A DNA stretch of 64,000 nt from Iphione sp. A-MEVVRFRX5 (Eukaryota): the NCBI GenBank assembly GCA_976226885.1, contig OZ320318.1:25854001-25918000 (forward strand), written 5' to 3'. Position numbers and translations under genes: made by a program. Shown here piece after piece: positions 4,001-55,489 of this stretch. Positions within the stretch are counted from its first letter, which is position 1; the number at the start of each line of letters is the position of its first letter. A model generated the notes under the pieces. It ran no database searches, was not told the origin of the DNA, and saw only the letters and a list, made by a program, of their open reading frames with translations.

Positions 4001-7000
4001 TGTGGCCTTTTTTAGTTCCATTTTTTCCCATGGGTGAGCAATGCTCATATTACAAGCTTTTGTATATATTATCTTTTAAATTTCCATATAGATTCAATTC
4101 AGTATAGTTACAATCGGCTTAAACATCTTTATGTGAATGTATGACCGAATTGAGAGCGACAGGTCCATGATCTATTGCAACACTGTAACACTACTAATTT
4201 TCTCTCATTGACTCTATTAGGCAAAAACTAGAATGGAGTATGTATTTGTAACTGATACATTCTTATTAAAGCAAACAAATTAATATCTAAAAATGAAGTG
4301 ATGTATTCGTTTAATTTTGATTTGTAAAGTACCACCTCTCAACAAATCTGGAATCAATCAGTCAATCGTCCCGAGTAGTTCGCAGGAGCAATAGTTTCCA
4401 GTAATAGGTAAAACATTTTTTTAGAGTGAGTGCCATATAAAAGTCAGGTCCGTTAGATGGATGAGAGCATGGTTGTTGTTGCTAAATCGCTAAATGATTT
4501 TGAATGGCATGGGCAATCATTTTGTTTGTCGGACCCACTCACCGCAAATTCGCACTGTGTACCGTACAATGCATCCATGCGACAGGTATTGGGTCGGCTA
4601 TTGTGTTATTTGATTCCCCGTGAGAGGGCACTGTTCATTTTCTGTCATATCATTCCATGACCGATGGAATCGTTTTCGCAGCCACCGTATGCAGCTTTTT
4701 GTGATTCATATGAGGACTGAAGTCTGATCAAACCGTTACCGACGCACAATTCAGGAAACCTACCCCGATGGTAAATTCTATATACATTGTGTAAGATCAA
4801 TATCCACCGAAAGCCACAAATCATGTACAGCGGGTCTGACTACCTGTCCAAAACTGAAACCAACAAATTTATATTGGGTAAAACGATTATAAATAAAAGA
4901 AAACTCCAAAAGATGGAGGGCTGATTGAGTTATTTGAAATACATACATATTTTTACTAGGCCTGAGTGAAATTCAGTAGAATGTCATATCGGCTATAGCC
5001 TTTATTGTTATAATAAAGATACACAGCATGTTTAGTGTTCCCCCATCCCCTTATGAGAGATTCGAGGCATGTGTAAGCTCATATCCAACTCCATCCAGTA
5101 CTGCCATTGTGTTAGTCCTGGCATGCTTTGTCTATGATACAACTATAGCTGGGAGGTGTGATTGTTGCAGTTCAACGATAGTGTCCTCAGAAAAAAAACG
5201 GAGAAAGAATCTTATTCGCTGATATGGTATTCCTGGCTTTATCCTTCAGGAGATGTGTGTATGGTCAGATCAACCTTGGCTGTAGAGTTTACATATTTTA
5301 TATGCAATATCCTGTGGCCGTGAAGGGTTAATTAAGTAATTAATACTCATAACTGACCGATCACGAAATACGTGATCACAATAGAATAACTGGGCACTGA
5401 TGATGCACTTTTAGGCATTTGCAGGTACAACTCATTGAGTTGTCAGAGGAAGTGATAAACATGTCATTATGATGTTAGATACAGAACGTCTCTAAATTAC
5501 GTAGGTTCAGTCTATTACTAAACACCCGGTGGTTTCTCTAAAGTCTTTTAATGAAAAGAACATAACATTTCATTGCTCGGTTTTCGTTTCACACTTTTGT
5601 TAATGCGGTTACTAAAAGACCTCTGGATGTAGCAATCGGGGACTGCATGTACATATACGGCAATCCGCAACCTTGTGAGCACACGTCAAAATACCAATTT
5701 CTCAGCTAGAAGGTATACGTAAGTGGGTTGTCGCTGGAGCAATTTTACCACGATTTATGTGATAATGGTTACACTTACAGCAGGGAAGCATATACAGATT
5801 TCTTGCTGACCCTTGCTTACTTGTCATGTTTCTAACCAGTAGCATAGATCAATGGCCATTGTAATAAAACTATGTATGTATGCTCAGTATGATATGCAAA
5901 TGTTCAATAATGTATAAAAGAAAATTTCTTAGTGTACTCAGAAATTAAGGGTACGACATGTATGTATGTTTTTATTATTAACAAGTAGTTCTGACTCAGA
6001 AGATTCGGTTCGCAATTAGAGAATTTACAGAAACAGAAGTATAAAAAGGATTCTGCCTGCGTTGAACAGACACAAAATGAGGCTTTTGCTGTAAAACCCG
6101 AGTGTTAACATACCTAAAACTCTCGACAGGAGAGAATGGCTCACGATCAACAATTAGTGATAAATTACATAATGAAGCCTTGCATAAGAATACAGATAAA
6201 TTCGTTCGCATGTTTTGTCGAGCTGGTCATCTATGCACTCTATATGCAACGTATTTCATTATATGGACTGTAGGGTTTAAATTTTCTACCAAAACAAAAC
6301 AGTCATCAGATGAAATATGTCATTGCTTCATTTCCTGGTAAAAATTCAATTTCCAGGCAGACTGTAGAGAATTCCGAAAACTTCCATGGCAGTGCTGTTT
6401 AGATTTCTGCAGTGTAAGCTAAGTGGTGGATTTTTTTCTCTCAACAAAATGCATTTTATTTATTCATAATATGGCATTGTCCTATACATTTTGCGCCACA
6501 TCTCTATAATGTCTGATCTACGTGTCCAGAGCTCATAATAAAGGACTCAATCGCCTCTTTTCAGCCGAAATGATTTAATTGTATGGGGTCTGTAGAGACT
6601 GGTCCAATACCCAAGGCCAAAGTTTGTGATTTATTAGTTTATTGTGTTTGATAACTGCGATAAAATTGAAGATTACTCACATGCTGTCTCTCTATCAGGC
6701 TTTTTGCCCATACAAATTGGAACTTACGAGATCTTTCTGAATAAGAATAGATAGGAAGACATAAATGTTTATATTGGCCGTTAAATGCTGGACCATTATC
6801 AGTTCTGTTGAGATCGTCTATGCTTAATAACAATAATTTCTGTTCCCACGACAAAGTATTACTCTGTGGCATTCCAATACTGAATACGCACGCTGGAGGA
6901 ATACCCCAATTTCCACCAAAGGCTGGAAAAATCTTTCCAAAGGCTCCGCCTAGACAGCGGCCATTTGGAAGATTTAATTTGGCAATCCATAGGTGTGATT

Positions 7001-30600: not shown

Positions 30601-32599
30601 ATCGCCACTTGGGTTTAGGTACCTCTTTGCGATTAATAATAAAGGTGCCACATACTAAACTTAATCTTATGTTGTATGAAAACTGCCTGGGTGGGAGCAC
30701 GGTCACGGTCAGTCAGCCACCCAGTTGCAACACTTCTTTTTTTGTCTTCCTACAGTCAGAGTGCATTATTTTGCGACATAGAGAGACGTGAATAATTGTG
30801 TTATAATGTTTTTTTTTAATCCTCAGTCAAATGGTTAATTCATGATAGCAACGTTGTAAGTTTGCTGTAGCTTTGGTTTGTTTTCTTTAGCCAACAGATA
30901 CCTCAGTGAGAATAATGGCGAGGGTCATAGGCCCTTCCTGCAAACCTTTTGGTGCACCAAGCCTTTTCCCGACTCTCTCTGAAGTTTCACACCTTGTGGG
31001 TGATTAGCTACAATATTTCTCCCATGTTGCTATTTGTAAGAGAGGTTGGACCTACTGTGCATCGAACTGAATCATTTGGCACATCTTTATTTCCATGGTA
31101 ACATGTAATAATACTTACGCAGTGCAATACATTACAATTAAAGTAGCCTGATGTAATTTCAAAATTTACGATGACTAATGTAACTACATGTTCTTCCAAA
31201 TTCTCCTTGTCAGGCTATTACACCGAAGCTGCGTGATTATATATATAGGAGGCACCTTTCAGAAATTTGATAATAAACCGAATCCTACAGTGTTTACATA
31301 CAAAAAGACTGAGTTTGAATAGTTGATTTTTCCTTGAATCGAGGGGTCTTCTCGATCCCTGTAGGCGCTTTTAAAGACAAAGCATTTAATAATGCACATG
31401 GACAGAAGACTGGTAGAATATATTGCTGTTGCGCTTCGACAGCATTAACCTGATTAAGTCGTCTACTATGAAGTTGCAAGTATGAAATATAATTATGGTA
31501 ATGTACAAGCACTTCACGCGGGGTTCGCTATGCTTTTTTCAAGCCGTGAATATCATACTCATCAATTAGCTTTACTGCTGCTACTGTTTATCAGGAAGAA
31601 CATCAATAAACGTTCATAAGTGCCCAACAATGTGTTGAATTTATCAATGTAGCTACCTGTTAAAGTTGCCTAGATTCTGCAAATAAGGAACTGCTAGAGC
31701 AAAGGATTCCTTGCGTGTTGCCTATTCCTGCGCGTACCTCTTTCGATGTAAAGCTATACATGCCCCTTGCTGCTGTACGTTGTATCGTATGGGTTCGGTA
31801 TCAGAATGGATGTCAATCTAACACTACATACGAGGGGTCTAGTGCTCTGGCTGAATGTGCTTCTATACATACATGATCGGTGGAAAATACGCACGTTTCC
31901 TCGTTTTCTTAAGGGATAACCATAATTCTTGCAATCCGGATGCTAAAGACGGGAATTCATATACCTCTTACTGAAGAATGGTGTTTACAATGTATTTCAG
32001 CTGCCAGTAGGTCCATTATTGCATAATTTACGCATATACCGTATGGTGGATAACGAGACAATCACGGTTGAAACCATCGCTATTCCTCTGTCTTCTTCCT
32101 TGTGACTCACCCTTATCCTTCTTTGTTTGTCAGGAGATATATGACAATAGAGATTGTGACATCTCTTTAGACACCTCTACACGTCCTAGAGAGGGAGATT
32201 GAGCCAGAGCACTAGATCATTTCTAAGAGACTACTAAGCTGGTACAAGATCTTTGTAGAAACTACAGAGGATGCAACGTTGCCAGTGATTTGAAATAAAA
32301 TGAAGTAAAGTACTAGATATTTTATTGACACCTTTCATTCAGAGTTCTTCTTGATAAGTAATAAATAAACCAGAAAAGGTAAAAAGATAGGTAGAGAAAG
32401 AATTAACTAAACCTTACACAAAAAACTTCCTTATGATGTGACATAGAATCAGTGTACCATGATTTATTATATGCCTATGCCGGGATAATAATGATATATG
32501 GTATGAACATCATAAGGTGTTTCAAACAACGTGCCATTCAGAAAACTAGCCACGTTTAGAATTCTGTCAGTTCAATTTTTGAACCGAAAAATATAATTC

Positions 32600-43150: not shown

Positions 43151-43830
43151 CATTAGACATTATACAAACTATCAAGACTGGTAAGCTTGATGTAAGATAG
43201 GTTTCCACTCAAAGAACATATTTGAGTAGTTAACACTTGGTAGGCGTCATCTCCCTGTTTGCATTCTGCAGAACTATGTGCCGTGTATTTCAAAGTATTG
43301 AGTACAACCAGTAGTATATGGATTGTATAGAAACATCATATTCATACTTCATTGTCCATTATTCGTCGTTATAGTTTCATGCATATATGTTTCATTATCT
43401 TGCGTTTTTACTGGTGTGGGAAAGAACTTGTACACCACGACTATAAATAATATTTATGTATGATCTACTTAGGACAAAGGTATAGCTAAAGGATGATGTG
43501 TACAAAGTCGCAACGTGCCAATTTCTATCTCTGAAAGACGTCTCACAGGCATGCAAGAAATAATCAAGATACGCAGCCGATATTCAGTTAATGCCGGTTT
43601 CTACATGTATTGCACAAAATCACTAAATTGTAATGTAATATATTGTTCATGTCACAGTGTGAATGATAAACAATCGATTGTTCCAGTGGTCAGTGTAATA
43701 TAAAAATAAGTAGGATGCTGCAATGCTTAACCAGATGACTGATTTGACGTACGCGGTGCCACCAAGGGAATTGGTTGGAGCGGTCGGAGGTACAAAGCGT
43801 TTGGGTTGAAAATAAAAGTTGCCATACCCA

Positions 43831-43989
43831 CAGGCCCGTAGCCAGGAAGTCTTCTGGGGGGTATCGGAAGATACCCCCAAATACTCTACATGTGGAGCTA
43901 ATTTATTTTTACCTCTATAAAAGTCTATTGGCATTAATGGTTTGGGGGTATCGGACGATACCCCCGATACCCCCTTGGCTACGGGCCTG
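43831..43989. mobile_element. 159-bp MITE with 14-bp TIR and 6-bp TSD
   Basis: CAGGCCCGTAGCCA ... TGGCTACGGGCCTG; TACCCA at 43825-43830 and 43990-43995; subterminal GGGGTATCGGA..GATACCCC palindromes at both ends. Confidence 0.9.
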
Positions 43990-44437
43990 TACCCATGATA
44001 TGTACCTTGACTTATCAGTTGAATAGGATTTCTTTCGTTCAAACCGTCTCCTTATCCAGATCTACCGTCATTATACGAAATACTGAACAAATCGTCCATA
44101 ATCGTCCATAATCTATATAACATCATAATTTTCAGTTCCTAAGGCGCAGATAAAAAAAATCTGTTTCTCTTACAAGTCATCGTACATTCAATAACTGTTT
44201 CTTAAGGTCTCGCCCAGTGTAGCGACCGATACGCTGCAGATATGTTCAGCTGCACTGTTATAGCGAATAGGAAATCTTATCTGGTGCAAAATATACGCCT
44301 GAGATATCACTGGCTGCTATCGTGTTTACCTCTCCGCAACAAAATCATATATAAGCATATTGTATTATCTGTTGCATAACTAGACGTGCTCAATACCTAC
44401 TTTCAACAATACATTTGATCTTCTATTACCTTTTCAG

Positions 44438-45176
44438 ATATATCGCCATCGTCCACCCCATCCAAGCCCACATCTTGTGTAGTCGACGGCGTATAGTTCT
44501 CGCCATCTCCATCATCTGGCCAGTGGCGCTGATGCTGGCCCTGCCCACTGTCCTCTTCAATGTGGTCCGTCGTCCTCATCCCGGCTTCCAGGTCGAGTTG
44601 TGCGTGATACACTTTCCCGGCGACCACGTCAGCTTCCGCATCGGCCACCAGTTCACCGAGTTCGCCCTCTTCTTCTTCGGGCCGGTCGTCATCCAGAGCA
44701 TCCTCTACGCCATCATCTGCAAGCAGCTGTTCGTCGGCACGAACGAGCTGCACCGCCGGCCGGTGGTCAGCCGGGCCGACGGCCACCGCGAGAGAGACTC
44801 GGACGCCATTCGAGCCCGGAAAGGCGTCGTCAAGATGCTCATCGCCAGCGTGATGATCTACTTCTTCAGCTACGCGCCCGTGCAGCTCCCCTTCATCTAC
44901 AGCGCCATCAGCTCGCGGCGCTTCCCCGGCAACTGGTCCTTCCACGTGCTGGTCGTGACGCTCGGCTACGTCAACTCGGCCGCCAACCCCATCCTCTACT
45001 GCATCTTCAGTCAGAACTTCCGCCGCAGCTTCCGGCGCGCGCTTTGCTCCTGCCTGCGCCCCAAGCCCGGTCACATCTCGCAGACGGGCGAGACGTCGCT
45101 CTGCCCGCGGGGGGTCGTCCGCTTCGGCAGCGTGCGCGGTCAAACAGCCACGACCGCCCTCATCTCGGAGGCGTAA
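44438..45176 (+). CDS. Same GPCR, coding exon 2 (end of TM3 to C-terminus); joined CDS 1224 nt, 407 aa
   Basis: Acceptor ttttcag|A at 44437/44438 completes AG+A = Arg, giving ERYIAIVHP. TM4 IIWP, ECL2 Cys (ELC), TM5 FFGP, TM6 SYAP, TM7 NSAANPILY, helix 8 FRRSF, LCSCL, stop TAA at 45174-45176. From memory it resembles invertebrate orphan receptors annotated as npr-15-like or trissin-receptor-like (unverified). Confidence 0.95.
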
Positions 45177-49125: not shown

Positions 49126-49650
49126 GAACTATTCTCAGGTATTTATTTGCTCTATATCCTTGTAGAGTGCATTTGTCATATCCTCTACTCGGGCCAACTA
49201 AGAAATTACCTTCAATCCCTTCAATACCTTGACTTGTTTGGAGAATTTCACTGAAATATGCTAATGCAGCTGTCCCATAATTCTCTATTAAGTTTAGATG
49301 TAGCACTTTGTTAGGGCCGTACGCTCAAGGCTCCTCAGTCCGACCAAATCAGTTGCAGCTCATTCGTCTCAATCTCAGTTTAATTCTTGCATACTCCTTC
49401 TCTGAAAGTACCGAACTTGTCAGTATATTTACAGCATTAGTGGAAAGACTAGGTACCATGGAAAAAACTTGAAGAAATATGAAGCTAACTGTAAATGTCA
49501 ATTGACCAGAGCCGAATATTGTAGAGACTTCAGCAGCAGAGTAACATTTTGCAAAACTAAATTGACCGCTTCTAGAAATGTTTGAACGAGATACAAAAAT
49601 CGTTAAATAGTGAAGGTCATGAAATTTAGGGAAAATAATGAGATTAGTAT

Positions 49651-49914
49651 TGTGGTGCTGCGGAGTGCGGCGCCAGGAGGCAACCCCCGGTGCTGAGTGC
49701 TGCACGTGGAGTGCGGCACCAGGACGCACCGGGGAGTGCGGAGTGCTGCACTCCCCATCCCCCCCTGCCCCTTGGGATGGGTATATAAGGGGCTGCTGAG
49801 GGAGGAGATTCATTCTGGTTAGAGCCACCGTGCTGTTCACATCTGTTGTTGGAATAAACCCCCATTGTCTACAAACCCTAGTCATGTCTTTATTACGTAA
49901 TGGCAAGCGCTACA
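49651..49914 (+). repeat. 5' LTR (264 bp)
   Basis: TGTGGTGCTG...GCGCTACA; TATATAA at 49782-49788 and AATAAA at 49853-49858. Confidence 0.95.
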
Positions 49915-49915
49915 T

Positions 49916-49933
49916 TGGTGGCAGCAGTGGGAT
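49916..49933 (+). promoter_or_regulatory. Primer-binding site, tRNA-Leu type
   Basis: TGGTGGCAGCAGTGGGAT begins 1 nt after the LTR; its reverse complement ATCCCACTGCTGCCACCA resembles the 3' end (with CCA) of eukaryotic tRNA-Leu. Confidence 0.85.
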
Positions 49934-50075
49934 CTCGCCTGCCGCAGGACATGGCCGGGGTCAGCCGCTGGGAAGGGGACGCCGACGGTGGCCGGCCGGG
50001 GCACCGGAAGTATCTGGGGACTCGGATCAGTGGGACAGTGACGGAATGTCGAGCTCGGACGATGAAGTCTAGCTG

Positions 50076-50400
50076 GGCCGCACGCCGCACAGCCGCACGC
50101 CGCTCAGCAACGAGCCGCACAGCCGCACGCCACAGAGCCGCACGCCGCACAGCAACACGCCACACAGCAAGGGACAGCATCGCCACCAGCCGCACAGCCG
50201 CACGCCGCTCAGCAAGGGGCCGCATCACCACCAGCCGCACAGCCGCAGGCCGCCCAGCGGGGGAACCAGTGGGGGGCCGCATCGCCACCAGCCGCACAGC
50301 CGCAGGCCGCCCAGCGGGGAGCCGCGTCGCCGCAGACCGTTCAGCGGGGGGACGCTTCGCCGCAAACTGCGCAACCTCAGGATGCGCCGGGGGATGCCGC
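50076..50400 (+). repeat. Degenerate tandem repeat in the gag position of the LTR element
   Basis: Repeated AGCCGCACAGCCGCA(C/G)GCC units, reading as PHSRTP/QPHSRR or SRTAARR depending on frame. Confidence 0.8.
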
Positions 50401-50723
50401 CCAGCCACACGCCACAACACCACCCCATCTAGTCGGGCCTGGGACAGGGTCAGGACCGACCGGCAGCGCTAACAGTAGCCCTAGGTCCACGACGACACTC
50501 CCCAGTTCTGCGCGGACAGAAACGTAGAACGATCATGGACAGCTAGTACGAGGCCTGCGGGACAGTTGGGTTGGGTGACGGCCACCTGGGCGCTGACGCT
50601 TGGAAAACCCGCGGGGATGCTGACCAAGGGCAACCAACGGTTCGAGGAATGGTCGGGAATCCGGGTAGTGCAGGCGGTGGTGCGTCCGGCTGAGCGAAAG
50701 CTGCTGGTGCCAGTATGGAACCC

Positions 50724-51352
50724 GGACCCCCTAGAGCCTTGCATTCAGACCAAGGGTGGAATTTTGAGGCTGAACTCTTCGCAGAGGTGTTACGATTACT
50801 GGGAATCGAGAAGTCCAGAACCACACCGTATCACCCCCGAGCAGATGGGGTGGTAGAGCGTTTCAACAGGACACTTGCCAACATGCTGGCCACACTGGGG
50901 GAGGAGAGACAGGCAGATTGGGACTTGGCACTTCCCTTCGTGATGGCCGCATATAGGGCCACCCCTCACAGCACCACTGGGGTGTCCCCCAACTGGCTAA
51001 CCTTGCACCGAGAAGTGACCACGCCGGCGGAACTATGCTACGGGTACCCGGAGAGGGCGGCAGTAGCGAGAAGAGAGTACGCATGGCAGGCGGAGGAGGA
51101 AGTTCGTGAGGCCCACCAGCGGGTCGCTTGCAAGCTGAACAAAGCAGCCGAATTGCGACAGGATTGTTATAACCAAAAAGTAAGGCCCCAGGAGTATTTG
51201 GTGGGGCAGAGTGTGTGGCTCTTCACCCCGCTGAGGAAGAAGGGGGTGTCTCCTAAATTTCAGAGCTGGTGGAGGACCGATTGTCGGCGGTGATCTACCG
51301 AATAGGGAGAGGCGCTCGCAGGAGGGTGGTGCATGCGGACCGACTGAAACCT
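50724..51352 (+). pseudogene. Integrase core plus C-terminal domain remnant, N-terminally truncated and frameshifted
   Basis: LHSDQG...TTPYHPRADGVVERFNRTL with exactly 35 residues between D and E. The HHCC finger and first catalytic Asp are absent. Near 51270 the frame shifts where the GPY/F motif is expected (SWW in one frame, DRLSAVIYRI...VVHADRLKP in another). Confidence 0.9.
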
Positions 51353-51744
51353 GCGGTGGGTGATATCGCTGTAGCGGCGACTGGATTACCCCGGAAGGCC
51401 GCTGCAGAGTCCCAAAGGCAGCGCAGAGTACGCGTTGTGGAACGGTGCCAAGGGAATACACCAGAGGGCGCCGCGACGAGGCAGGGTGCTGCGGAGGCCG
51501 AGTGGGCTGCTGCGGAGTTATGCCGCTTCTCTTCCACAGATGGCGCCATGTTAACAATGAACGTTCCCCGCAGCGTCTCTGGCAACCTAAGCGCACGCCC
51601 TGAGCCTCCTCGCACCACATTCCCAGAGCTTAAAGTCGTTGTCAACTCGATCTCTCATCAAGCCAGCCAGAGAAATACGCCTCTGCTTCCCCTGGTTCAT
51701 AAGGATTCTGCCATAAACGAGGTAAGACACGGTAACTCCAGATA

Positions 51745-51915
51745 TTTGTCTCGGCAGCTGAGCAATAATCAGGGAGGACGAACCATATCGTGTCTTGTTA
51801 GGCTGCAACACTTCAGTAACGGTGCCCCAATTATGCATTTGTCTCTGCAGCTGAGCGATAATCAGGAAAAGCAAGCCATTTCGTGTCTTGTCAGTCCACA
51901 ACATTCCAGTAACAT
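51745..51915 (+). repeat. 93-bp diverged tandem duplication between integrase and accessory ORF
   Basis: tttgtctc(g/t)gcagctgagc(a/g)ataatcagg...tcgtgtcttgt at 51745 and 51838. Confidence 0.75.
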
Positions 51916-52131
51916 TGCCGCATTTGTGCGAATTTGTGATCAGAAGCCACAAGTTGCAGCGGCGAGTAGTAAGCCGCTGTGGAGTAATGAGAGATTGAAG
52001 TCATTTAAGCCGCAACGTAGTCGCAAGCCGCACGCGGTCTCAAGGATGGCCGCTGCGGAGCCACTGCAGACTCCGATGTGGAGTGCGGCACGAGAGAGTA
52101 CTGTACGAGGAACGAATTTGACAACAACCTG

Positions 52132-52157
52132 TACTAATTCGCCCTTATTCCCCGTAG
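52132..52157 (+). promoter_or_regulatory. Candidate branch point and 3' splice site upstream of the accessory ORF
   Basis: TACTAAT (52132-52138), pyrimidine tract tcgcccttattcccc, TAG ending at 52157, ATG at 52169. Confidence 0.6.
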
Positions 52158-52168
52158 GCTCAAGCGTG

Positions 52169-55030
52169 ATGGCAGAGGAGAGTCAACCCCCGCCAGCGGA
52201 CGGAGCGACGCCGCAGCCGCCGGCCCTGTTTTCATGCCATCTCTGTGATATGGGCTTTCAACAGCGCCAGAACCTGCGTCGCTATATGGAACAAGTCCAT
52301 AGCCCGAAGGGTTTTGGTTGGATCTGCCCGGCACTGGAATGCAAGGGCACTGCTTTCCGAGTCGGATTCCGACTCGGAGTCGGCATCTCCTGGGGGTGCA
52401 CAGGTCCCTGCAGACGATGCAGACTGTTGATGTACGCTATGTCCGCTTCTCGGGGTTCAACCCCACCCGCGGGGTCGCCATTGACTGCCCCACGGACAAG
52501 CAGCCGGAACTGGCCCGGCGACGCCGACGCGAGGCCATCGCGAGAACAAAGGACCTCCGCGCGGAGATCGTGGAGTCTTCAGATGATGAGGCGGAGCCAG
52601 GGGAAGAGACCCCCGCCCGGCAACCGCGGCCACCTGCCCGTCGGGCCCACCGTCGACTCGGCACGGACTACTCCGCCCCAGCGACCCCCAGCAGCTCTGC
52701 AGGTAGCAGAGGGCATCCCACGTCCACCTCAGCTGGGTCGGCGGAATCCCCATCAGAGACAGAACGACCCTCTCAGCCGGCCCACGGGTCAACCTCCGAG
52801 GCCGGACCATCGCCGAGCAACCGGGCCGGGACCAGCAGGGGGTCCGCGTCATCCCCGGATAGGATGCGGCCGCGCACCTATGCCAGGGCTCCGAGGGAGC
52901 GGCCGGTGACGTTGACAATGTGTGCGCGGACGCTCCCCCTGGTCCCGACCCCGAAGGAGATTAACCTACCGACAAGTCAAGGCTACAAGGGCCGGCGGCT
53001 GTTTGCCGACTCCGAGTCGGAATCCGACGGGACGGAGGAGGGCCAAGGGCAACCGCCAACGGAGACATCGAGCTGCCCGACCAGACCGACCCCGACGCAG
53101 CCCTCCCCCGGGCCGTTGGCCCAACCCCCAAATGCCGTGTACTCGCCGGGCAGAGGGCACGCAGCAATGCGCCATCAGGGCCGGGCCGGGGTTGGCAAAG
53201 GAAAAGGGCCTGTCGCGGCTGGGCCGCGAGGGAAGGGGAAAGGAAAGGCCCCCCCATCCAAGGCGGCACGACCCGGGCAGCCGCCGGTCAAGATGGGCCG
53301 AGGTTCGGCCACAGATACAGAGGAAGAGTTGGATTGCCGCCTGGAGCCCGGCTGGTCCAAGGAGGGGTCACCTTCCCAGACGGTGGTCATTAGTGACTCG
53401 TCGGGGGACTCTCCCTCACCACCACGGAAACGGCCAGGAAGCAAGGTCCGCCCTATGGAGGGTGGAGTGACCCCCGGGCGGGGCACCGTCACGCCCAACC
53501 CCCTCGACACCAGGTTCGTCCACCGGCGGAGGCAGTGCGTCGCAGATCAGCCCCCTGAGGAGAGTGTTCGCGGAGACCCTGGGGGCCTCCTTCTGGGTGG
53601 ACGATATTAGTTCGGACGAACTCCCAGATTTGGAGGAAGAGGCGGCTGTTACCCTGGCGGGCCTTTCCCAACACAGTATATCGGGACCGACCGGTACACC
53701 AAACTCGCCGCGCCTTGAACCACCAGCTGGCCAGCCGCCTACTTTGCCGACAAGCCAGGAAGGGACGACCCCTGCCTCGGCCACATCTGGGGAGCGGACC
53801 CGCGAGCTGGCGCCCATCGTGGAGGATTCCGAGCCCCCGGAGGCCTCTGACGATGAGGAGGCGGGAGCCGGGGGATTGTCAGTGGTGCCTCAGGAGGAGA
53901 CTGTTCTGGTGGCCCCTCCGTGCGCACCCTCTTTGACGGATTTACCAGTGGTTCCGGTGGCTTCTCCCCCGGAAGTTTCTGATGACGAGGAGGCGGGAGC
54001 CGGAGGATCGTTGGTGGTGCCTCAGGAGGAGACTGTTCCGGTGGCCCCTCCGCGTGCACCCTCTCTGACGGATCTACCAACCACCGAGGGAGTGCTACCG
54101 GTCAGGACGCTGGTCACGGACGGCAGCAGGGTGACCGACGCCATCGCGGAGCCGTCACTACCAGTGATTGATAGGAGAGAGCCAGAGGAACCGTTGTTGC
54201 CCGGCCGCGCCAGTGGAGCGGGCCTGGGAGGGGCGATACCAGGGACCTCCGCCGGAGCCCCGCTTATCCCCGGGCCACCCCGAGCCGGTGCAGAAGGATC
54301 GGGGGTGACGCCTCACCATGAGCTGCCCCCCACTGGGCCCGGCACAGGGCTGGCGCTACCAGACATGCCGAGGACAGGCCCTGCGCGACCGTCCGGAGAG
54401 ACGTCACTGGCTCACAGTTGGGAGGCAGAAGCCCTCATTGATCGGCCCATACGACCCGGCCCCTTGGGGGACACGGTCCAACATTGGGCGACCCCGGTTC
54501 AACACCTACGGAGGTGGGCGTCACTGCCGAACTTGGCACGAGGAGCAACTTCCCCCACGGCGCGCGTGCATCCCCTGACATCACCAGGTCTGGGCCGAGG
54601 GGCCGGACAACCGTGGATACCGCCAGGCACACGCTCCCCCTCCCAGTTCTGGTCCTACCAGGACATTTCCCCCCCCTCACCTGAGGACTCAGGCATACCG
54701 GAAGAGGTGTACGTATGGGCAGCAGGACGCTTCGTCTCCTGCCAGTCTGCACCGCCGGAGGGCTGGGAGATCGTGAGGGCGTCTGGACGGTCGGAGGTTC
54801 AGGCATTGGGGGGGCATCAAGTGAAGCTCACCCTGAATCAGAGTATCTGCTTCCGGCGGAGCGGGCCAGACCAGCTGGACTCGGCTGAGCTGATGCGTTG
54901 GCACGCACAACGTTATGAAAATCTCACCAGAGGCACCGCCATGCGTAGGTTGACGACGTGGGACCAGGCCCACATCAGCGATTGCGTCGTGGCCAACCTT
55001 AAGGAGGTGTGGACGGTGTCTCTCCGCTGA
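52169..55030 (+). pseudogene. Env-position accessory ORF (about 950 aa reconstructed): two C2H2-like zinc fingers, basic patches, acidic/Pro-rich region, unknown C-terminal domain; two compensating frameshifts (near 52355 and 53570)
   Basis: gtgATGG start at 52169; FSCHLCDMGFQQRQNLRRYMEQVH; CPALEC...RHLLGVH across the first shift; protein-like text continues in ORFs 52318-53610 and 53564-55030; stop about 115 nt before the PPT. Confidence 0.7.
53834..54075 (+). repeat. In-frame 132-bp (44-aa) tandem duplication inside the accessory ORF
   Basis: SDDEEAGAGG..VVPQEETV.VAPP.APSLTDLP occurs twice, starting at 53846 and 53978. Confidence 0.9.
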
Positions 55031-55146
55031 GGGTGCCAGTCGGATTACTTCGTGTTCAAGTTGACTGTTACGGGTTGCCGTTGGATTGAGAACTGTTACA
55101 ATCATTGTAGTTGCTGATGAGAACTTTGAGGACAAATTTTCGTTTT

Positions 55147-55158
55147 GGGAGGGGGCAG
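55147..55158 (+). promoter_or_regulatory. Polypurine tract
   Basis: GGGAGGGGGCAG preceded by a T-run, directly abutting the 3' LTR. Confidence 0.9.
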
Positions 55159-55431
55159 TGTGGTGCTGCGGAGTGCGGCGCCAGGAGGCAACCCCCGGTG
55201 CTGAGTGCTGCACGCGGAGTGTGGCACCAGGACGCACCGGTGAGTGCGGAGTGCTGCACTCCCCACCCCCCCGCCCCCCCCCCGCCCCTTGGGATGGGTA
55301 TATAAGGGGCTGCTGAGGGAGGAGATTCATTCTGGTTAGAGCCACCGTGCTGTTCACATCTGTTGTTGGAATAAACCCCCATTGTCTACAAACCCTAGTC
55401 ATGTCTTTATTATGTAATGGCAAGCGCTACA
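55159..55431 (+). repeat. 3' LTR (273 bp)
   Basis: Matches the 5' LTR except for 4 substitutions outside the C-tract and a C-tract 9 nt longer; TATATAA 55299-55305, AATAAA 55370-55375. Confidence 0.95.
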
Positions 55432-55489
55432 GTATGCTAGCAACCACTGGGTAATGAGAAATAAATTGAATAGGTGGAAAATGAGCAAG

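Follow-up and report, generated by a model that had tools for sequence, protein, structure and literature searches.

The 64-kb window (the whole stretch of DNA analysed, 64,000 nucleotides) contained a Gypsy LTR element of 5.78 kb (49651-55431) with a zinc-finger open reading frame, ORF3, at the env position. In part as the earlier note had proposed, this ORF was element-borne and non-env, with a strong candidate splice acceptor and nuclear-protein features; it also bore a signal of selection. The best reading of the sequence is that it would constitute a spliced, nuclear and self-regulatory ORF3 of a Gypsy family (probability around 0.5).

The copy was a recently inserted, internally deleted animal Ty3/Gypsy LTR retrotransposon, and the features outside ORF3 were the following:

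49647..49650 and 55432-55435: left and right copies of the 4-bp target-site duplication, GTAT
49651..49914, + strand: 5' LTR (TG...CA), start of the element
49782 and 49810-49815: TATA and initiator-like TCATTC in the 5' LTR, putative promoter by consensus
49818: weak donor candidate CTG/GTTAGA in the 5' LTR, putative role by consensus
49853: AATAAA in the 5' LTR
49916..49933, + strand: primer-binding site (PBS)
49934..50612, + strand: low-complexity 5' remnant with 15/45-nt repeats, by position probably the gag start
50614..50748, + strand: possible protease-RT linker remnant of Pol (weak, E 0.97)
50724..51278, + strand: 3' half of the integrase core, frame 0 (Pfam rve E=5.6e-6; Pol profile 229 bits)
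51269..51360, + strand: integrase C-terminal domain in frame 2, matching Pfam Integrase_p58_C (E=4.9e-6, 27 bits)
51362..52168, + strand: Pol tail, 269 codons, frame 2, the same frame as the zinc-finger ORF
51744-51913, + strand: 93-nt duplication in the Pol tail
52007: Pol-end-like motif KPQRSRKP in the Pol tail
52132..52157, + strand: candidate splice acceptor with TACTAAT as branch point, a pyrimidine tract, TAG and a 46-nt AG-free zone
55147..55158, + strand: polypurine tract (PPT)
55159..55431, + strand: 3' LTR (TG...CA)

Ty3/Gypsy membership was indicated by the TG...CA LTRs, the target duplication, the PBS (presumably of the tRNA-Leu type) and the PPT, all of which were present. The two LTRs were mismatched at 6 of 264 sites, and the element occurred once within the window. 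The copy was heavily deleted internally and non-autonomous: downstream of the linker remnant there was no RT, no RNase H and no N-terminal integrase half, no capsid or nucleocapsid domain was found by Pfam in the 5' remnant, and a frameshift near 51270 separated the integrase core (frame 0) from Integrase_p58_C (frame 2). Across the window, ARAGORN detected no tRNA genes, Rfam gave no matches, and none of 36 further ORFs, of which 32 lay outside the element and 4 were antisense within it, matched a Pfam family. A location of the element inside a GPCR intron was considered and rejected.

The integrase at the end of pol was of the Gypsy type, with Integrase_p58_C directly after the core. All 120 relatives listed were Gypsy-type Pol or fragments thereof, the closest among these matches showing 43-48% identity. 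In an integrase tree of 118 of these 120 listed matches plus the query (support values 0.40, 0.71 and 0.79), built without reference elements, Priapulus and Mytilus proteins were found within a 53-leaf group.

The splice acceptor described in the earlier note was recovered in full: TACTAAT at 52132 (the only TACTAAY on the + strand of the element), a pyrimidine tract, a TAG (AG at 52156-57) and, 11 nt downstream of the candidate acceptor, the ORF3 ATG at 52169 in GCGTGATGG context. This was the only strong site, the single one of 186 YAG sites to pass a filter whose thresholds were chosen with it in view. A comparable acceptor was present in 10 of 300 simulated elements, and in none of the 300 together with a perfect branch point. 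No convincing splice donor was found near the 5' end in a scan of the element; the best candidates after the start site matched the consensus at 7 of 9 positions (51180, 51722 and 51732) or 6 of 9 (49818).

ORF3 and its features were as follows:

52169..55030, + strand: ORF3, 954 codons in three pieces, with breaks at 52356-52385 and within 53471-53607
52229..52300, + strand: C2H2-like finger 1, with Tyr at the third ligand position in this copy
52325..52401, + strand: probable second finger, disrupted by a templated lesion
52516..52530, + strand: basic patch RRRRR
53383..53436, + strand: SIM-like VVISDS, then Ser/acidic residues and the basic patch PPRKRP (53419), putative function
53834..54079, + strand: in-frame tandem duplication of 132 nt with an excess of synonymous differences
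54686..55027, + strand: probably folded orphan C-terminal domain (sequence pattern; low-confidence model)

The 2862-nt span 52169-55030 could indeed be read as one protein, made up of a frame-2 piece, a frame-1 piece (open 52303-53610) and a further frame-2 piece (open 53471-55030). Both of the frameshifts that the earlier note had called compensating were present, but their compensation carried no evidential weight, a second shift restoring the frame in one of two cases. Pieces B and C of the ORF were open where 8.8 and 13.1 stops, respectively, were expected by chance. The units of the 132-nt repeat differed at 9 synonymous vs. 5 non-synonymous positions (pN/pS 0.21, binomial P=0.005, from 14 differences in 38 codons), while pN/pS was 1.14 and 0.98 in the other two frames. 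This pattern points to purifying selection on ORF3 as a protein in the past; in the present copy ORF3 is dead or damaged. The selection signal alone did not distinguish a host from an element origin.

Finger 1 had the spacing and hydrophobic residues previously described, but one of its His ligand positions was occupied by Tyr. It resembled C2H2 proteins in three libraries, each time weakly: Pfam zf-C2H2_4 matched with E=0.0044 but, at 18.1 bits, fell short of the cut-off (27 bits), the best PDB sequence matches were C2H2 proteins, and the ESM Atlas returned generic C2H2 clusters with recognition below threshold. A single-sequence model of the finger region (pLDDT 54.9) was obtained without the beta-beta-alpha fold, and no candidate emerged for this region among proteins of 117-2000 aa. 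The C-x4-C...H-x4-H spacing claimed for finger 2 was unreadable and could not be verified, because a templated copy of a stretch lying 640 nt further downstream had overwritten the central part of the finger as far as the first His codon. Fingers of the C2H2-like type also bind RNA and protein.

The middle of ORF3 was long, of low complexity and rich in Pro, Ser and acidic residues. Both basic patches noted before were confirmed (RRRRR at 52516 and PPRKRP at 53419). VVISDS, at 53383, agreed at 5 of 6 positions with IVISDS, the SLS-4 of ICP0 described as an experimentally tested SIM (PMC3174244), and conformed to the ICP0/Daxx-type motif; no instance of the IVISDS-type pattern occurred in 137,661 aa of Pol relatives or in 3000 shuffles. 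The classical SIM consensus (psi-x-psi-psi or psi-psi-x-psi plus an acidic flank) gave no matches in the four pieces searched. A looser SIM pattern with four sites was discarded as post hoc, one site having been counted twice, and only the IVISDS-type site was retained.

Database searches returned no homologue of ORF3. The C-terminal 180 aa gave 606 candidates among proteins of 910-2595 aa, none at E<=0.01, and the C-terminal 172 aa matched one of 1.84 billion representatives, P0003, which was rejected as a tandem-repeat artefact. The ESM Atlas contained no usable match to the C-terminus and NCBIfam nothing useful for ORF3; of 132 pattern matches in prokaryotic genome contigs, not one was confirmed. 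The middle piece (52303-53607) was compared with Pfam, NCBIfam and the 120 listed Pol relatives. The C-terminal domain was modelled from its single sequence with a pLDDT of 51.5; with this low-confidence model a fold search peaked at Z 5.5 (71 residues aligned, rmsd 3.0) and Foldseek gave no match at E<=0.001, and neither result was given any weight. Catalytic families of the GDSL and DEDDy types had no Pfam match in any ORF3 piece at E up to 1.

On the preferred reading, the element family would have a third gene of its own, placed between pol and the PPT. RNA initiated at the LTR TATA/initiator would probably be spliced to 52158, so that ORF3 would be expressed from an env-like subgenomic mRNA, and its protein would probably be nuclear. 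There are roughly even odds that the fingers would bind the nucleic acid of the element (most simply the LTR) and that the acidic Ser-rich/SIM-like region would recruit activators or oppose SUMO-dependent silencing; through such binding, recruitment or counter-silencing the element would boost its own expression.

A rather unlikely alternative is that the ORF would be mainly a C-terminal extension of Pol, an integrase-tail-zinc-finger polyprotein made from genomic RNA, its fingers and SIM-like site tethering integration to chosen DNA or chromatin in the manner of integrase-fused chromodomains, with the acceptor yielding a second, free form. The ORF did not begin in an interval of its own, bounded by stops, after integrase: frame 2 ran open from 51257 to 52909, spanning the integrase C-terminal domain and finger 1, and the 269 codons of the Pol tail contained no stops in this frame vs. 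11 and 17 in the other two. This stop-free, in-frame tail, overlooked in the earlier note, makes a Pol fusion possible beside the spliced product; one relative, P0107, has a PHD finger immediately after integrase, and chromodomains at the Pol C-terminus provide a precedent (described in PMC12440569). The open stretch was, however, largely accounted for by an ordinary Pol tail with its Pol-end-like motif, a motif like KPQRSRKP (pattern devised in this analysis) being present in 21 of the 107 relatives with tails of at least 60 aa, at a median distance of 11 residues from where Pol ends. This leaves just the final 46 codons (1.8 stops expected) to be explained, and a stop between Pol and ORF3 may have been lost, since this copy has several lesions. 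Moreover, the dedicated acceptor and start codon suit a separate gene, and a C2H2 motif was present in none of the 120 listed relatives (searched up to 2000 aa, a full fusion being longer).

The Pol tail being in frame with ORF3 counts against the preferred reading, since a plain separate gene would not lead one to expect it. For the 93-nt duplication in the tail, pN/pS was 0.58 (P=0.23). An unlikely elaboration would be a zinc-finger, SUMO-binding counter-silencing factor produced from a single reading frame in two forms, one fused to integrase (from genomic RNA) that would mark or protect the insertion, the other free (from spliced RNA) and sustaining the transcription of resident copies.

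It is doubtful that spliced ORF3 would be a Rev/CERV-like factor binding unspliced genomic RNA in the nucleus for export. A strong acceptor implies that the element needs an export route for intron-containing RNA, Arg-rich patches were present, and in the Gypsy element Cer1 the CERV protein, made from a spliced mRNA, is described as required for genomic RNA export (PMC10309623); against this, no RNA-binding Pfam family was found in any ORF3 piece, and the acidic Ser-rich/SIM-like stretches would better suit chromatin work.

Capture of a host gene, or a nested element, confined to the present copy and with no retrotransposon role, is improbable. C2H2 fingers are common among host genes, the window held a single copy, the acceptor could be the end of a captured host intron, and the ORF (0.66) and host exon 2 (0.64) were similar in GC content. 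Its AT skew was nevertheless positive like that of the element (+0.13, vs. -0.13 and -0.15 in two host exons), the junction with Pol was in frame, the ORF was tightly packed between the Pol tail and the PPT (3' spacer of 128 nt), no intron was apparent in its 2.9 kb, and no host homologue was found in the protein searches. A diverged env or other membrane-fusion protein, to which the position after pol and the probable spliced message would correspond, is already largely refuted by the lack of an evident TM helix or signal peptide that the earlier note had reported (top 19-residue hydropathy 1.34 and an N-terminus that was not hydrophobic, from hydropathy only), two N-glycosylation sequons in 2.9 kb, a low-complexity composition with a zinc-finger start and no Pfam env family. 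For F or gB fusogens, Pfam and NCBIfam gave no match, and the fold search covered just the low-confidence C-terminal model.

The suggestion of an undescribed family held for the libraries and literature searched (a scope without Repbase, Dfam and the host genome), but non-env ORF3s are already known; it is the zinc-finger type that was not found in that literature. If the preferred reading is true, regulatory accessory genes would have arisen in Gypsy elements independently of complex retroviruses, and anti-silencing factors of animal transposons would gain a testable candidate in ORF3. Foamy-virus Tas is a 3' transactivator, and the two-form counter-silencing factor, if true, would be a retrotransposon counterpart of such complex-retrovirus transactivators, deleted copies keeping only ORF3 then being potential helpers in trans. 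A real Pol fusion would represent a new kind of integrase-linked targeting module. Host C2H2 genes are described as repressing LTR retrotransposons, and simple LTR elements as thought to rely on host transcription factors (PMC10547256); this picture would be inverted by an element that encodes, at the env position, a nuclear C2H2-type protein of its own.

Among known systems, ORF3s typically derive from spliced messages and can be non-env (as described in PMC5408684). The LTR retrotransposons Juno, Vesta and TelKA of bdelloid rotifers likewise come from animals, are Gypsy-like and have a third ORF, specific to each family, downstream of pol, and TelKA2n, non-autonomous and lacking the gag end and most of pol, has kept its ORF3 much like the present copy; the bdelloid ORF3s described there are env, TM, coiled-coil, GDSL esterase or DEDDy exonuclease proteins, unlike the zinc-finger ORF3, and the word "zinc" is absent from the main text (PMC5408684). 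The gag-pol-ORF3 layout of metazoan Gypsy elements is shared with errantiviruses (described in PMC13524379), whose env differs from the present ORF3, in which hydropathy showed neither a signal peptide nor a TM anchor and no fusogen family was matched. CERV of Cer1 (Caenorhabditis elegans) is likewise a Gypsy nuclear accessory protein from a spliced mRNA, but it acts in RNA export, and the abstract mentions no zinc finger, the likeness being one of description only (PMC10309623). HSV-1 ICP0, with a Zn-binding N-terminus, a long low-complexity body, an NLS and an IVISDS-type SIM, offers an analogy of presumed function only, and its RING ligase domain is absent from ORF3 (described in PMC3174244). 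In plants, ORFs of orphan sequence also lie between pol and the 3' LTR (Grande gene23, Retand and RIRE2), with nuclear localisation in Grande and a proposed regulatory role; those that are nuclear run antisense from a promoter of their own (PMC7264820), whereas the present ORF3 lies in the sense direction, continues the Pol frame and encodes C2H2-like fingers. Finally, the chromovirus chromodomain (described in PMC12440569) and the PHD tail of P0107 likewise follow the integrase C-terminus as in-frame binding modules; such tails are short and end Pol, whereas ORF3 extends over some 950 further codons with its own acceptor and ATG.

The 954-codon zinc-finger ORF between pol and the polypurine tract (ORF3) is, on the sequence of a single damaged copy, a real, selected third gene other than env, carried by a young, defective Gypsy copy and preceded by a strong splice acceptor; this bears out the non-env gene that the earlier note had placed in the env position. 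The unexpected feature of this copy was that ORF3 was joined in frame to Pol. The features concerned were:

516-1028 and 44439-45176, forward strand: the two exons of a rhodopsin-family receptor gene of neuropeptide type
49651-55431, forward strand: GC-rich LTR element, ~4.5 kb downstream of the receptor stop codon
50724-51278, forward strand: 3' half of the integrase core
51269-51409, forward strand: integrase C-terminal domain, in a different frame from the core
52132, forward strand: branch point TACTAAT, followed by the acceptor AG (52156-57)
52169-55030, forward strand: ORF3
52229-52300 and 52325-52401, forward strand: C2H2-like finger 1 and probable finger 2
52356-52385 and within 53471-53607, forward strand: ORF3 breaks 1 and 2

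The window was animal DNA (~40% GC). Receptor exon 1 was nearest to galanin, kisspeptin and somatostatin receptors, and the 43.4-kb GT-AG intron contained two short inverted-repeat pairs, possibly old MITEs (31838-32216, 30-nt arms, 83%; 43830-43990, 30-nt arms, 77%), and a further set of branch point, pyrimidine tract and YAG (4192-4220), a possible cryptic or alternative acceptor. Next to its LTRs the element kept a primer-binding site (behind the 5' copy) and a polypurine tract (in front of the 3' copy). Between the LTRs (264 and 273 nt, starting with TG and ending with CA), 6 of the 264 aligned sites differed, along with a single 9-nt indel, and GTAT flanked the element on both sides; the insertion is therefore young. 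No second copy was found within the 64-kb window. Upstream of the TATA box, each LTR carried a tandem repeat of 46 nt (49662-49751; 55168-55259), a candidate site for binding by an element-encoded finger protein, and a 15/30/45-nt repeat array (50077-50364) lay at the presumed gag start.

This element is a deletion derivative. Within it, a Pol profile drawn from 22 of the 120 listed Pol relatives matched the 3' half of the integrase core (229 bits), the C-terminal domain and, weakly, a protease-RT linker remnant (E 0.97), with no match for RT, RNase H or the integrase N-terminus; no gag domain was found by Pfam in the 5' ORFs. The integrase search returned 254 proteins at E<=1e-10 (best among the 120 listed, 43-48% identity), and a tree of 118 of the 120 listed plus the query placed it in a weakly supported group including Priapulus and Mytilus proteins. 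One of the 120 listed, the related Gypsy Pol protein P0107, had a PHD finger following its integrase C-terminus as a fused domain.

ORF3 was readable in three pieces with two breaks, as previously seen. At break 1, 25 nt were an exact inverted copy of 53004-53028, 640 nt downstream (longest inverted match in 100 simulations, 20 nt), and 11 nt more were a direct copy, together forming a palindrome; break 1 is a real templated lesion and looks like the product of template switching, in repair or reverse transcription. Both frames were open at break 2. The second and third pieces contained no stops (8.8 and 13.1 expected), and a 132-nt duplication in the third showed 9 synonymous and 5 non-synonymous differences in the ORF frame: pN/pS was 0.21 (P=0.005), and the remaining two frames gave 1.14 and 0.98. 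ORF3 was therefore constrained as a protein since the duplication, on 14 differences within one copy that cannot tell host selection from element selection.

The predicted protein comprised, in order, the fingers, RRRRR, a long Pro/Ser/Gly/acidic region, PPRKRP and finally 114 C-terminal residues of more hydrophobic character, which may fold (predicted folds were too poor for use); the basic patches and the Pro-rich and acidic Ser-rich stretches were present as described. Finger 1 kept its spacing, had Tyr in place of one His and matched C2H2 models weakly in Pfam, PDB sequences and Atlas alike, and finger 2 had its middle overwritten by the lesion at break 1. VVISDS at 53383 resembled ICP0 SLS-4 (IVISDS), a tested SUMO-binding motif (PMC3174244). 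This type of pattern did not occur in the 137,661 aa of Pol relatives, and since the ORF3 pieces held no match to the classical acidic-flanked SIM consensus, VVISDS was counted as one suggestive SUMO-binding-like site only. Ninova reportedly linked SUMO to piRNA-guided silencing in 2020.

Branch point, pyrimidine tract, TAG and ATG were all at the positions first described. Of 186 YAG sites on the element plus strand, the ORF3 acceptor alone passed a filter for pyrimidines, AG-free zone and branch point, with thresholds chosen with this very site in view; among 300 simulated elements, 10 had a passing acceptor, in no case one with a perfect branch point. These figures are supportive, not proof, because the thresholds were post hoc, one minus-strand site also passed and the receptor gene's own acceptor lacked TACTAAY. 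No good donor was found close to the element 5' end. The simplest candidate is 49818 (6/9 match), directly past the likely transcription start; deletion may have removed the true donor from this copy. A 7/9 match (GAG/GTAAGA) occurred at 51722 in the Pol tail, 436 nt upstream of the acceptor, and a splice from it would terminate Pol at the out-of-frame TGA overlapping the ORF3 ATG (TGATG, 52167-52171). Such overlaps are used elsewhere for stop-restart translation; this one may be chance. The 3' LTR held a near-consensus donor (CCG/GTGAGT, 55237-55245), missing from the matching 5' LTR site near 49732; its place upstream of the TATA box makes it an improbable donor for ORF3.

Our best reading (probability about 0.5) is that ORF3 would be made from a spliced message, and that its protein would localise to the nucleus, bind nucleic acid of its own element and thereby raise the element's expression. 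A somewhat unlikely alternative, not mutually exclusive with this regulator, is a targeting module fused to integrase, which is favoured by a finger-1 frame that extends without a stop from the integrase C-terminal domain. This link was overlooked in the earlier note: from Pol tail to ORF3, 269 codons contained no stops (the other frames had 11 and 17). Most of the open stretch is ordinary Pol tail because it holds a basic motif that 21 of 107 relatives have near the Pol end (median 11 residues from the end, 90th percentile 48, by our own pattern and leaving out 13 with tails <60 aa). Past this motif, 46 further codons reached the ORF3 ATG without a stop (1.8 expected): either Pol truly runs on into ORF3, for which the odds seem a little better than even, or a stop was lost in this copy. 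No C2H2 motif occurred in the 120 relatives listed (of 254), searched as proteins of up to 2000 aa, shorter than a full fusion. A CERV/Rev-like RNA exporter is unlikely, and a passenger gene more so: the ORF is packed closely against the polypurine tract, shows no apparent introns and has an AT skew like that of the element, all of which favour the element over the host as owner. Env is very improbable because the protein, as first noted, had no membrane segment and no hydrophobic N-terminus.

Word-based searches at scale, weak on distant relatives, found no homologues of the ORF3 C-terminus and fingers. ORF3 is a provisional orphan, given the type of search, the two regions that it covered and the frequent masking of transposon ORFs in annotations. 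Some unnamed mollusc proteins may carry N-terminal C2H2 fingers inside Gypsy elements, and the type may be widespread and just undescribed.

In the open literature covered, which included main-text passages of PMC13524379, PMC12440569, PMC3174244, PMC13269885, PMC8556966, PMC10547256 and PMC12006353, no Gypsy element was found with an ORF3 of C2H2 type; the supplementary element tables of PMC13524379 and PMC8556966 could hold relatives. Bdelloid LTR elements have non-env ORF3s, mostly spliced, and include a non-autonomous family retaining its ORF3 (PMC5408684), Cer1 has a spliced nuclear regulator (PMC10309623) and MDG1-group elements have small accessory ORFs (PMC11952523); plants have nuclear orphan ORFs downstream of pol (PMC7264820). 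Spliced ORF3s other than env are already known, and the C2H2 type would be the new feature.
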